This document shows positions 1 through 4,345 of a stretch of DNA of 4,345 nt, piece after piece (within the stretch, counting starts at the first letter, position 1; each line of letters starts with the position of its first letter). The stretch is from the IMG/VR virus record IMGVR_UViG_2740892487_000004. One strand, given 5' to 3'. The stretch is from a virus (lineage: Duplodnaviria; Heunggongvirae; Uroviricota; Caudoviricetes). The translations under genes were made by a program, and so were the position numbers. The notes under the pieces are model-generated. The model did not search any database and was not told the origin of the DNA. It saw only the letters and a list, made by a program, of their open reading frames with translations.

Positions 1-635
1 GCGCTGATTTTCTTACGCCGCAGTTCATCGTGACAGAGCCGGGTGTCGTAAGCGCCGTCTGCCGATGCTGCCCTGATTTTTCTGTGAGTCTGCCGGATAA
101 GACCCGGGAAGCTTCTGAGTCCGTCACATTGTTCAGCGACAGGTCTGCACAGATGATTTCATGTGTGTTGCTGTCAACTGCCAGATGCAACTTTCGCCAT
201 ATACGACGGCGTTCTTTGCCGTGTTTTTTGGACTTTCCATTCGCCTTCACCAAAGACCTTCAGCCCGGTGGAATCAATCACCAGATGCGCGATTTCACCC
301 CGGGTGGGCGTTTTGAAACTGACATTAACCGACTTTGCCCGCCTGCTGACACAGCTGTAATCCGGGCAGCGTAGCGGAACGTTCATCAGGGCAAAAATGG
401 AATCAATAAAACCCTGCGCAGCCCGCAGGGTCAGCCGGAATACGCGTTTAATCACCAGAACGGTGGTGATGGCGAGATCAGAATAGCGCTGGGGCCTTCC
501 TCGTGAAGAAGGTGTTGCTGACTCATACCAGGCCTGAATAGCTTCATCATCCAGTCAGAAAGTTATGGAGCCACGGTTGATGAGGGCTTTATTGTAGGTG
601 GGCCAGTTGGTGATTTTGAACTTTTGCTTTGCCAC
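1..635 (-). pseudogene. IS903-type transposase, disrupted (one in-frame stop and two frame changes); C-terminal part lies beyond window start
   Basis: Start candidate GTG 635..633. An in-frame TGA at 557..555 falls at the position of a Trp in the recalled IS903 protein, within the otherwise matching motif F-[W]-LDDEAIQAWYE. The frame then stays open to a TGA at 176..174. The conserved transposase sequence continues only after a +1 shift near 222-232 and a -1 shift near 103-115. Confidence 0.75.
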
Positions 636-712
636 GGAACGGTCTGCGTTGTCGGGAAGATGCGTGATCTGATCCTTCAACTCAGCAAAAGTTCGATTTA
701 TTCAACAAAGCC
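500..712. repeat. Left arm of a 213-bp inverted repeat (IS903-like end), partner at 4135-4345
   Basis: The reverse complement of 4135-4345 aligns with 500-712 with 2 substitutions and 2 single-base indels (about 98% identity by hand alignment). The right arm stops at the window end, so the true repeat is probably longer. Confidence 0.9.
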
Positions 713-1143: not shown

Positions 1144-1748
1144 AATTCACAGGTGTTTTTTTTCCATCCTGTGGTTTCCTTGGCGTTTTCTAGGTTTTTT
1201 CAGATAGTTGCATTTTTTAAAAAGCATCCTAAGTTCGATCTCAGTGTCTATCTGGGGCCTATTTCTGTCCCATATATGCCCAAAAAAAAACTCCCCAACA
1301 GATAAGTAGTTTTTTCATGGATTTATGCGTAAAATCAAGAACGGCTGGAAATCATTCAATACTCACACTATCGAAAAATTTACCAGCCAACCGCAGCACG
1401 TTCTTGCATAAGGCGTGTCTGCGGTTTTTCAACTATTCAGATACATCACTCCCATCACATTCATTCCTCCGCATCAAAGGCATATAGGCTATATCACCTT
1501 GATATTTTTATTTTTCAGATAAAAACTGTTATCTATGTATACTTTTAAACCCAATCCGTGTAGAGTCTCTGCATAAGATAGTTTGCAGTTGCCGCTTCAG
1601 CTTGCGCCATAAACCGCCTGATTTTTGCTGCCACCTGTTAGCATTCCTGTATACCTGAAACGACAATGTTTATCTACGAACTTTAAGAACACCCAAGATA
1701 AAAATTGTCAACTATATCATATATAACACATTACTAATTCGAGGCTAT

Positions 1749-1862
1749 ATGAACAGCATACTGATAATCACATCTCTCCTTATCATATTCAGCATTTTTA
1801 GTCATGCCCTAATAAAATTAGGGATTGGCATATCCAATAACCCAGACAAAACCGATGTATAA
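1749..1862 (+). CDS. Candidate small hydrophobic protein (37 aa, probable single transmembrane helix)
   Basis: ATG at 1749 is preceded by GAGG (1741-1744) with a 4-nt spacer. The product [37 protein letters not shown] has a hydrophobic core and a polar tail. It is below the size cutoff of the supplied ORF track. No homology could be checked. Confidence 0.3.
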
Positions 1863-1930
1863 GTCAACATATCCTGAATCAGACATACAATATCGCAATG
1901 AAAATCAATAATATTTTAAGGAATATCTTC

Positions 1931-2164
1931 ATGAAATCAAAAGACACCCTAAAGTGGTTCCCTGCGCAGCTTCCTGAAGTAAGAATTATCCTAGGGGATG
2001 CTGTAGTGGAAGTAGCAAAACAGGGAAGACCTATCAATACCAGAACATTGCTTGATTACATTGAAGGAAACATAAAGAAAAAATCATGGCTGGATAACAA
2101 AGAATTATTACAAACAGCGATATCAGTTCTTAAAGACAACCAAAATTTAAATGGTAAAATGTAA
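1931..2164 (+). CDS. ydfK: YdfK/YnaE-family small prophage protein (77 aa; family recalled as cold-shock inducible)
   Basis: Track ORF 1898..2164. The ATG at 1931 has AAGGA at 1918-1922 with an 8-nt spacer, whereas the ATG at 1898 has no Shine-Dalgarno sequence, so I favour the 77-aa form MKSKDTLKWFPAQLPEVRIILGDAVVEVAKQGRPINTRTLLDYIEGNIKKKSWLDNKELLQTAISVLKDNQNLNGKM. Its position between a ydfJ-like gene and a pin-tfa-stf module matches the recalled Qin arrangement; ynaE is the Rac paralogue. Confidence 0.7.
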   Translation: MKSKDTLKWFPAQLPEVRIILGDAVVEVAKQGRPINTRTLLDYIEGNIKKKSWLDNKELLQTAISVLKDNQNLNGKM

Positions 2165-2480: not shown

Positions 2481-3071
2481 ATGTCTCGAATTTTTGCTTA
2501 CTGTCGGATATCAACGCTGGATCAGACCACCGAAAATCAACGCCGGGAAATCGAAAGTGCAGGTTTTAAAATCAAACCTCAGCAAATAATCGAAGAACAC
2601 ATTAGCGGCTCAGCAGCAACCAGTGAGCGTCCTGGTTTTAACCGGTTGCTTGCTCGCCTGAAATGTGGTGATCAATTGATTGTGACAAAACTGGATCGCC
2701 TTGGTTGTAATGCAATGGATATCAGGAAAACAGTGGAACAACTGACCGAAACAGGTATCAGAGTGCATTGCTTAGCATTGGGGGGCATTGACCTGACCAG
2801 TCCAACAGGAAAAATGATGATGCAAGTAATTTCAGCAGTCGCTGAATTTGAACGAGACCTTTTACTTGAACGCACTCATTCCGGGATAGTAAGAGCCCGG
2901 GGCGCAGGGAAACGTTTTGGTCGACCACCTGTGTTAAATGAAGAACAGAAACAGGTGGTATTCGAACGAATTAAGTCAGGTGTAAGTATAAGTGCCATTG
3001 CCCGGGAATTCAAAACCTCGCGGCAAACCATTTTAAGAGCCAAAGCAAAACTTCAGACACCTGACATATAA
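2481..3071 (+). CDS. pinQ: Serine recombinase of the resolvase/invertase family, PinQ/PinR-like (196 aa)
   Basis: Full ORF. The N-terminus [20 protein letters not shown] carries the catalytic-serine motif R-I-S-T-x-D-Q. GRPP at residues 147-150 and a C-terminal helix-turn-helix ([18 protein letters not shown]) are typical of the Gin/Hin/resolvase family. Length and context match E. coli PinQ/PinR as recalled. The Shine-Dalgarno sequence is weak (GAG 2471-2473). Confidence 0.9.
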
Positions 3072-3168: not shown

Positions 3169-3744
3169 CTACGGCAGTGCTGGCCATTCAATATCCTGTG
3201 CAGTTGACGTATCAACACGGTTCAGCAATACCCGATACTTTTTCCATGCTTCCAGCAACGAGATTTCTTCCTCCGTTGCAATTTCCAGATCTGCAGCATC
3301 CTGAAGCGGCGCAATATGCTCACTGGCTACCTGCATCAGGCTGTTTTTTGTTTCTTCCGCCTCCCGGATCCGGAACAGTTTTTCTGCTTCCGTATCCTTC
3401 ACCCAGGCTGTGCCGTTCCACTTCTGATATTCCCCTCCCGGCGATAACCAGGTAACATTTTCCGGTAACGGACCGAGTTCAGAAATAAATAACGCGTCGC
3501 CGGAAGCCACGTCATAAACCGTTTTACCCCGATGATCTTCAACGAGATGCCACGATGCCTCATCACTGTTGAAAACAGCCACGAAGCCTGCCGGAATATC
3601 TGGCGGTGCAATATCGATACTGTTTGCTGGCAGACCTGTATGAGGCGGAATATATGCGTCACCTTCACCAATAAATTCATTAGTTCCGGCCAGCAGATTA
3701 TAAATTTTTATGGTCCGTGGTTGTTCACTCATTCTGAATGCCAT
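3169..3744 (-). CDS. tfaQ: Phage tail fibre assembly protein (Tfa chaperone, 191 aa)
   Basis: Full [52 protein letters not shown]..., recognised as the TfaQ/TfaR/TfaE family. Its ATG (3744..3742) overlaps the stop of the upstream tail fibre ORF (TAATG), consistent with translational coupling. Confidence 0.9.
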
Positions 3745-4133
3745 TATGCAAGCCTCACAATATAGTTAAATGCGATGTTTTTGACGGTGTTTTCCGCGTT
3801 ACCAGCAGCGTTAACGGTGATGGTATGTCCATGTGAACCAATCGCAACGGAGTGCGTATGAGCACCAATACCGACAGTATGTGCGTGTGCACCTGCGCTT
3901 GCAGCAGTACCCGATACAGAGTGCGTATGAGCGCCTGCAGAAGAAGTGTTAACACTGTATTTAGAATAATCAGGTGATCCACTTCCCGGAGCACCACTGG
4001 AACCACCTGAAACAAATGTCATCGAATGGGTATGTGCACCGGCTGAAGCAGCCGTACCGCTAACACTATGGGTATGCGCACCAGTGTTATTCGTGGATTT
4101 AGTGCCGTAATCAAACGACGATGTGGTTTTCGT
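3744..4133 (-). pseudogene. stfQ: Side tail fibre protein, C-terminal 129-codon remnant; 5' part removed at the IS junction
   Basis: Track ORF 3744..4223 (-). Residues 31-159 ([37 protein letters not shown]...[11 protein letters not shown]) are typical of the lambdoid side tail fibre C-terminus with His-x-His repeats. Residues 1-30 ([30 protein letters not shown]) are encoded by 4223..4134, which is IS903-like terminus sequence, so there is no native start. Confidence 0.8.
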
Positions 4134-4134
4134 C

Positions 4135-4345
4135 GGCTTTGTTGAATAAATCGAACTTTTGCTGAGTTGAAGGATCAGATCACGTATCTTCCCGACAACG
4201 CAGACCGTTCCGTGGCAAAGCAAAAGTTCAAAATCACCAACTGGCCCACCTACAATAAAGCCCTCATCAACCGTGCTCCATAACTTTCTGGCTGGATGAT
4301 GAAGCTATTCAGCCTGGTATGAGTCAGCAACACCTTCTTCACGAG
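4135..4345 (+). mobile_element. IS903-like insertion sequence, partial copy B, inverted relative to copy A; runs off window end
   Basis: 4135-4153 is GGCTTTGTTGAATAAATCG. GTG at 4212 opens [21 protein letters not shown], then the frame breaks at TAA 4279-4281: copy B lacks one base relative to copy A in GGAGC-CACGG and another in CAGG-CCTGG. Confidence 0.85.

Follow-up and report, generated by a model that had tools for sequence, protein, structure and literature searches.

AcrZ, MgrB, MgtS and SgrT are single-pass regulators in the inner membrane of Escherichia coli. They are of about 50 amino acids or fewer, consist of a single hydrophobic helix joined to a short polar stretch, and bind larger membrane proteins. 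The membrane protein gp15 of phage HK97 is encoded by a moron, an accessory gene that lies close to the tail genes and is expressed from the prophage. The protein considered here, YnfT, is built in the same manner, being small, with a single hydrophobic helix and a short polar tail; we know of no sequence similarity between YnfT and any of these proteins, and of no YnfT target. Unlike regulators of the AcrZ/MgrB type, YnfT is uniquely paired with a cytoplasmic protein that models as YmgB/AriR-like.

Two further groups of short reading frames invite comparison. Type I toxins (Ldr, Ibs, TisB, Hok, PepG1) are of similar size and likewise form a hydrophobic helix, whereas for YnfT Rfam shows no cognate antisense RNA and no family match is above threshold, and the protein is expressed during normal growth. 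MdtU (YdgV), the translated upstream frame of the mdtJI leader, resembles YnfT in its length, 34 against 37 codons, and in preceding the gene that would be regulated; both lie in leaders that were at first taken for non-coding RNAs ending prematurely. YnfT differs from MdtU in its membrane-helix architecture, in purifying selection over its whole length and in its accumulation as a stable protein, and neither a spermidine-type signal nor a Rho site is known for it.

The closest described system is YnfT/YnaM of Escherichia coli K-12, whose 37-amino-acid sequence and position between ydfJ' and ydfK are the same as here. VanOrsdel et al. 2018 (PMC6001520) list this sequence at both the Qin and the Rac loci, the Qin copy under its former name ynfQ, report both loci as positive in a tetracycline ribosome-profiling screen, and count YnfT/YnaM among the small proteins that they saw on immunoblots after SPA tagging in the chromosome. 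The gene is thus already known: its name, its b-number and its own families in Pfam and NCBIfam date from 2018-2019, and the 2024 survey of the K-12 y-ome still counts it among the uncharacterized Qin genes (PMC11551758). What the present analysis contributes are modest additions: conservation of the cassette in divergent members, an invariant tail, a predicted topology, an AriR-like fold of the partner and a caveat on multi-mapping reads.

Identity of the gene and layout of the window

The window, i.e. the whole stretch of 4,345 nucleotides that was analysed, is the att-proximal end of the E. coli cryptic prophage Qin (Table 1). Between -177 and +514 relative to the ynfT ATG its sequence is the same as that of MG1655 Qin, base for base. 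It differs from MG1655 in that the end module is here bracketed by inverted IS903B-type elements, which MG1655 lacks and which interrupt ydfJ and the tail-fibre gene. Between the ydfJ fragment and ynfT lie about 650 nt that carry no annotated gene.

Table 1. Coordinates of the features in the window, with the basis of each assignment where given
Feature	Position	Strand	Basis or remark
IS903B-type element end	1 to ~712		
ydfJ fragment (host transporter gene)	702-1100	minus	
Proximal upstream block, conserved; sigma-E-promoter-like in relatives	1678-1712	+	alignment, motif scan
GAGG Shine-Dalgarno core, 4 nt before the ynfT ATG	1741-1744	+	read from sequence
ynfT CDS, 37 codons and stop, YnaM/YnfT family	1749-1862	+	ORF list, RefSeq, Pfam, NCBIfam
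ynfT codons 4-28, predicted single membrane-spanning helix	1758-1832	+	hydropathy, AlphaFold
ynfT codons 29-37, polar acidic tail SNNPDKTDV	1833-1859	+	alignment of five versions
ynfT-ydfK spacer, 68 nt, with ydfK ribosome-binding site	1863-1930	+	sequence
ydfK, 77 aa, conserved downstream partner	1931-2164	+	RefSeq
pinQ	2481-3071	+	
tfaQ	3169-3744	minus	
Tail-fibre gene fragment, then (position given) second IS903B-type end, inverted	from ~4135		

An earlier, sequence-only reading of this DNA had pointed to a hydrophobic 37-codon frame. The frame lies on the plus strand, and its ATG at 1749, the stop ending at 1862 and the peptide are as quoted there. Its placement about 70 bp upstream of ydfK likewise holds, the stop lying 68 nt before the ydfK start. 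The GAGG ribosome-binding site is present, and only the description of its 4-nt spacing as optimal is slightly generous: such a spacing is usable but somewhat shorter than what is usually best. The frame had also been called unlisted and of a kind missed by annotation, which does not apply, since RefSeq carries ynfT at the same coordinates and the protein has its own Pfam and NCBIfam families.

Of 5426 complete E. coli genomes searched by megablast, 2810 contain the region 1400-2200, where the annotation reads 'ynfT: YnaM/YnfT family protein', and the ynfT CDS of the best match maps exactly onto the reading frame at 1749-1862. In MG1655 the Qin gene is b4748 (1632890-1633003), directly upstream of ydfK, and its Rac twin ynaM (b4744) encodes the identical protein directly upstream of ynaE. 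YnfT scores 96.2 bits against Pfam PF23676 (cut-off 27) over positions 1-37 of 37 and 63.9 bits against NCBIfam NF041477 (cut-off 35), matches PHROG 35882, a family to which that database assigns no function, and shows the design of the YnaM/YnfT family, about 37 amino acids with one hydrophobic helix and a tail of the SNNPDKTD type. The identical protein stands upstream of ydfK at 79 of the retrieved loci, and in several phage GenBank records the gene is left unannotated. We therefore identify the frame, with high confidence, as ynfT (b4748) of prophage Qin, a genuine protein-coding gene in a ynfT-ydfK cassette.

Selection on the reading frame and conservation of the cassette

The view that the frame arose by chance in AT-rich leader DNA and has no function of its own draws on its composition, as codons for Ile, Leu, Phe and Ser are AT-rich, and on its length. 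When the 791-nt non-coding stretch (36% GC) was shuffled by dinucleotides 1000 times, 89.5% of the resulting sequences contained an ATG-initiated frame of at least 37 codons, so that length alone is at chance level. A frame of this length with a Shine-Dalgarno 4-mer 4-10 nt upstream occurred in 7.5% of the shuffles, and none of the 1000 combined both with a 19-residue window as hydrophobic as that of YnfT.

The substitution pattern argues against chance. Salmonella phage 118970_sal3 carries a copy of ynfT with about 80% nucleotide identity that keeps the 37 codons, the ATG and the GAGG at 4-nt spacing. Fifteen of the 23 differences fall on third codon positions; 15 are synonymous and 8 nonsynonymous, which corresponds to an omega of 0.078 (Nei-Gojobori; binomial p 1.1e-5), and ydfK has an omega of 0.079 against the Salmonella copy. 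The two other frames of ynfT are full of stops in both the E. coli and the Salmonella sequences. Polymorphism within 73 full-length E. coli-type loci, comprising 23 haplotypes, follows the same direction, with 9 synonymous and 2 nonsynonymous changes in ynfT, both of the latter singletons, and a ratio of likewise 9:2 in ydfK. The substitution patterns show equally strong purifying selection on ynfT and ydfK. Between the five cassette versions described below, pN/pS ranges from 0.15 to 0.66 over all pairs, with synonymous sites saturated in the distant ones, and length and frame are kept even at this divergence. Together with the immunoblot detection of the tagged protein (PMC6001520), the low omega and the preserved frame contradict an origin by chance, whose probability we regard as practically nil; the conservation and synonymous-substitution check that the earlier reading had proposed comes out in favour of a real gene for a small hydrophobic protein.

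Searches starting from YnfT itself reach few relatives. The YnfT family appears very narrow among called proteins, since an exhaustive HMMER search of 1.84 billion representatives gave just four relatives, near-identical or truncated, and in tblastn searches of YnfT against phages the alignment was confined to the tail, which is free of low complexity. Relatives were instead reached via YdfK homologues, and the DNA upstream of the divergent ones was inspected. YdfK homologues at the loci L111/L112, L113 and L114/L115 (72%, 67% and 60% identity) are preceded, at 27, 32 and 76 nt, respectively, by a 39-codon frame of the same design. Overall, the spacing between the small frame of 37-39 codons and the YdfK homologue downstream of it (60-88% identity) is 27-76 nt. 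In L111 and L113 an AGGA or GGAG precedes the small frame, and their proteins are members of Pfam YnaM (61 and 66.5 bits). The small protein of L114, MNFPGWIAIVLMIAFAGAGIVALVKIASQVSNNNDEKEP, is not recognised by the Pfam YnaM model, yet the end of its helix and its tail can be aligned with those of YnfT (BLASTP E 3e-4 in a single comparison); for this reason we regard it as a positional analogue of YnfT and, judging from the alignment, probably a remote homologue. In the five cassette versions the residues M1, L10, I12, F14, A20, S29, N30, N31 and D33 are invariant, and with them the tail motif SNNxD.

The long upstream leader is not conserved among the E. coli, Salmonella and L111/L113 types, and upstream homology begins only about 50-70 nt before the small frame. 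The conserved mobile unit therefore consists of the promoter-proximal block, the small frame, the spacer and ydfK. In free lambdoid phages (HannyBb, 2H10, mEp460_ev081, Tritos and others) the cassette lies between int/attP and the invertase/tail-fibre genes; in the Salmonella phage it adjoins tail genes of the Mu/P2 type, and in L114 acyltransferase and tail-fibre assembly genes. Position and behaviour of the cassette are those typical of a phage accessory ('moron') unit. At the cassette of the free lambdoid phages, dinI is sometimes found beside int/attP.

In two decayed prophage remnants, L013 and L015, which had looked like divergent YdfK homologues (68% and 53% identity), both ynfT and ydfK are frameshifted, decaying copies and were therefore unusable for selection tests. 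No small hydrophobic frame was found upstream of the YdfK homologues with 55-64% identity that adjoin a giant GH94 gene in an Erwinia plasmid, in Enterobacter and in E. coli, nor upstream of the one in Limnobaculum. YdfK is thus not strictly dependent on YnfT.

Expression signals and start-site profiling

The sequence-only reading had held that a missing initiation signal in ribosome-profiling data would speak against the gene. For the Rac twin such a conclusion would mislead: YnaM is without start-codon ribosome density in retapamulin and Onc112 data, although the tagged protein is comparatively abundant (Weaver et al., bioRxiv 10.1101/511675). In MG1655 nothing distinguishes the Rac from the Qin copy between -52 and +22 relative to the ATG; the only differences up to +514 are at -53, +23, +26, +59 and +333, with more of them upstream of -53. 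Footprints of initiating ribosomes are consequently not uniquely mappable to either copy, and a missing initiation signal would not refute ynfT. We infer that the YnaM start peak may be missing through multi-mapping of initiating-ribosome reads. Discarding such reads would hide ynfT in start-site profiling of K-12, a caveat that extends to duplicated prophage genes in general.

Signals for transcription are less clear-cut. In genomic SELEX, the RpoD, RpoS, RpoH and RpoE holoenzymes bind the ydfI/ydfK and ynaE/uspF spacers in vitro, with peaks near window positions 1473-1575 (coordinates converted here), and the paper marks ydfK as being listed under RpoE in RegulonDB; with four sigma factors bound, the signal lacks specificity. 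Cassettes of the Salmonella, L111 and L113 types carry a sigma-E-like GAACTT-N16-TC(A/T)AA at -63/-67 from the start codon, a motif expected by chance at about 1.5-2% per 300 nt (motif scan, shuffles). The corresponding block of the window reads GAACTT-N24-TCAAC, and since its sigma-E-like halves are 24 nt apart, we make no claim to a sigma-E promoter here; as far as the alignment goes, the promoter function of the block in the window is uncertain. By eye, no convincing placement of a sigma-70 promoter directly upstream of ynfT was found. A cluster of predicted Fur sites lies in the ynfT-ydfK spacer, centred near 1906 (PMC2189734; coordinates converted here).

Spacers of 27-76 nt suggest that ynfT and ydfK are co-transcribed, and a terminator scan found no terminator-like site between them. 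In RNA-seq data the transcripts of ydfK and ynaE rise with csp genes (PMC7430671), and those of ynfT with deaD and rhlE (PMC13058169). The two genes probably form a co-transcribed 'moron' unit that is expressed from the silent prophage and whose transcripts rise with cold-shock genes. YdfK is itself annotated as a cold-shock protein.

The arrangement of ynfT directly upstream of ydfK on the same strand would also suit a translated upstream frame that acts mainly in cis and sets the transcription or translation of ydfK, e.g. via Rho-dependent premature termination, with the peptide itself a by-product or a nascent-chain sensor. The 5' leaders of ynaE/ydfK are reported, at second hand, in PMC5089854 and PMC4152368 as prematurely terminated and Hfq-bound, and the mdtJ leader of the same list holds a translated 34-codon upstream frame that controls Rho termination (PMC7815308). 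RNA folding gave no signal, neither for the region of the frame and spacer (z -0.40) nor for the proximal leader (z -0.70), and the terminator scan found no terminator-like site around ynfT; the spacers of L111 and L113, being just 27-32 nt long, leave little room for an attenuator. Against a role confined to the leader we further note that amino-acid constraint extends along the whole of YnfT at a level equal to that of ydfK (omega 0.08), that the transmembrane-type helix and the invariant polar tail are kept in divergent versions, and that the tagged protein accumulates to comparatively high levels (bioRxiv 10.1101/511675). A mainly cis-acting function is accordingly unlikely in our judgement, although cis-regulatory and protein roles of ynfT are not mutually exclusive and could coexist.

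Membrane topology, the YdfK partner and a possible function

Hydropathy analysis places a hydrophobic span of 21-25 residues at about residues 4-28, the best 21-residue Kyte-Doolittle window covering residues 4-24 with a mean of 2.27. The single-sequence AlphaFold model has a helix over residues 2-30 (pLDDT 88.7) and a less confident tail; the modelled helix is weak evidence, as any such hydrophobic peptide would be modelled in this way. In all versions Lys and Arg are confined to the C-terminal helix end and the tail, and none is N-terminal. By the positive-inside rule, positive charges predict the cytoplasmic side, and this one-sided distribution points to an N-out, C-in orientation. From these sequence features YnfT would with reasonable likelihood be a single inner-membrane helix (residues ~4-28), its N-terminus outside and its acidic SNNPD(K/R)TD tail in the cytoplasm.

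A short hydrophobic peptide that forms one helix and is encoded by a prophage calls to mind a toxin or a lysis modulator, both of which the earlier reading had suggested among other roles. YnfT would then be a holin, an antiholin or a membrane-depolarising peptide of the type I toxin kind, restrained by antisense RNA or by weak translation. Two further observations could be taken in favour of this view, a weak NCBIfam similarity to PepG1 (E 0.055, 13.1 bits) and a minus-strand promoter-like hexamer pair (1940-1913) that could drive an antisense transcript. The former is far below the cut-off of 70 bits, and promoter-like matches occur at chance frequency (7 found, 5.3 expected). Rfam searches of ynfT returned no relevant family on either strand (E up to 1), including antitoxin or sRNA families, and neither YnfT nor YdfK matched a defence model in PADLOC-DB 2.0 (E up to 1). 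The gene is paired with a regulator-like protein rather than, as far as Rfam shows, with an RNA, and it lies at the att/tail-fibre end, between int and the tail-fibre/invertase genes and outside the lysis cassette. Tight silencing of the kind known from type I toxins is hard to reconcile with the ready detection of the tagged protein in LB cultures, in the growing as well as the stationary phase (PMC6001520, bioRxiv 10.1101/511675). On the grounds of family scores, gene location and expression in normal growth we reject the toxin and lysis readings, either of which would be very improbable. A C-terminal tag could blunt toxicity of YnfT.

The other role suggested earlier, that of a regulator of a membrane protein, is possible. 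YcgZ, YmgA and AriR, three small connector proteins with an effect on Rcs signalling, are induced by cold and by RpoS. The AlphaFold model of YdfK consists of three helices (pLDDT 80.5), and its best PDB match in Foldseek is 2oxl_A, E. coli YmgB/AriR (probability 1.00, E 0.045, target-normalised TM 0.81, rmsd 2.0 A); to the YcgZ family there is a weak sequence match of 15.9 bits, below the cut-off. YdfK thus models as a YmgB/AriR-like three-helix protein.

In the mechanism that we propose, YnfT, whose gene is the first of the two in this prophage accessory cassette, would be a single-pass inner-membrane protein. As a stable membrane protein it may work with the YmgB/AriR-like YdfK via its cytoplasmic tail, or modulate a host envelope protein. 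That YnfT acts in this manner, and not as a leader only or as a toxin, is a tentative proposal. More speculative still, and rather doubtful at present, is the idea of a two-component module of YnfT and YdfK, induced by cold or envelope stress, in which the SNNxD tail would tether or gate YdfK. Induction might proceed via the sigma-E-type promoter kept in the Salmonella and L111/L113 versions, and the module would alter envelope signalling in the host or stop superinfecting phage at its inner membrane.

If true, such a module would explain why the cassette stays intact under purifying selection in about half of complete E. coli genomes and persists while the surrounding prophage decays. The ynfT/ynaM region is present in about half of the complete genomes of the best-studied bacterium, and the pairing of its small protein with an AriR-like protein, together with the invariant tail motif, provides concrete and testable hypotheses.

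Candidate transcription signals around the cassette

A sigma-E-promoter-like sequence, GAACTT-N16-TC(A/T)AA, lies at -63/-67 from the small membrane-protein ORF ynfT and is conserved in the Salmonella cassette (L002) and in the two divergent cassettes with a 39-codon ynfT-like ORF (L111 and L113). The E. coli-type cassette likewise has two sigma-E-like blocks, but these are separated by 24 nt instead of the N16 of the other three. Published genomic SELEX data show the RpoE holoenzyme binding to the spacer upstream of the small ORF, and ydfK is among the RpoE targets given in RegulonDB.

The ynfT-ydfK spacer also holds a cluster of GAAAATCAATAATATTTT-like Fur sites (17.1 bits), predicted by an information-theory scan (PMC2189734) and identical in the Rac copy. 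Because this predicted cluster overlaps a weak promoter-like site, ydfK might have an additional, Fur-sensitive promoter of its own.

Positions of the features discussed
Feature	Sequence	Position	Strand
IS5-family (IS903B-type) element end	window	1-712	
IS5-family (IS903B-type) element end	window	4135-4345	
Match to phage dinI 3' end and downstream region	window	from ~1305 (1305-1451)	
CssrB match	window	1392-1529	-
Sigma-E-like blocks	window	1678-1712	
Sigma-E-like blocks	L002	~3991-4019	
Sigma-E-like blocks	L111	~624-652	
Sigma-E-like blocks	L113	~1135-1163	
Weak promoter-like site	window	1864-1891	+
Predicted Fur-site cluster	window	1886-1926	
ydfK	window	1931-2164	+
RF02111 'IS009' match	window	3203-3401	-

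The Qin end module and its remnants

Two inverted element ends flank the Qin end module, which runs from a ydfJ fragment to a tail-fibre fragment, both ydfJ and the tail-fibre gene being interrupted by these ends. The arrangement is composite-transposon-like. At least 80% of the window is covered in one place in only 6 of the 5426 complete E. coli genomes.

Within the module, the stretch from about 1305 corresponds to the 3' end of phage dinI genes and the region downstream of it. Phage 2H10 and L113 both have an intact dinI ahead of their cassette. The gene has therefore been lost from this copy of Qin. The Shigella sRNA CssrB gives a weak, sub-threshold Rfam match (24.4 bits vs 76). A catalogued RNA candidate, Rfam RF02111 'IS009', is matched over its full length within the tail-fibre assembly gene tfaQ, at 221 bits (gathering score 117) and E 3.9e-55.

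Database records of the cassette

Sequence 99-100% identical to E. coli ynfT-ydfK also turns up in contigs deposited under the names Caldithrix, Alistipes, Draconibacterium and Chryseobacterium, as genomes or MAGs, most likely through contamination or mis-binning of the assemblies. An intact ynfT ORF has no annotated feature over it in OV696610 (Tritos), LR597641 (mEp460_ev081), NC_049950 (2H10), PV340576 and PV340573; ynfT is still overlooked in phage annotation, though now called by RefSeq bacterial annotation.

Relatives and fold of YdfK

In L099-L105, the more remote YdfK homologues, of 55-64% identity, adjoin a gene for a ~2860-aa GH94 glucan phosphorylase or synthase-like protein. Upstream, the place of the YnfT-like ORF is often taken by a divergently oriented gene for a small protein of the YnfU family (PF23499); YnfU is a further small protein family of Qin. 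In Salmonella (L107-L110, 1643-2265) two more genes lie ahead of the cassette: one of 137 aa without known family, and another, shorter member of the YnaE/YdfK family (70 aa), so that YdfK-like genes are tandemly duplicated there.

Precomputed tables assign YdfK to PF27475 (YnaE). Its structural model (pLDDT 80.5) can be superposed on crystallised E. coli YmgB/AriR (2oxl_A) with a target-normalised TM of 0.81 and an rmsd of 2.0 A, and the YcgZ family is a sub-threshold sequence match. These two matches suggest that YdfK/YnaE belong to the group of small connector proteins linked to cold and RpoS.
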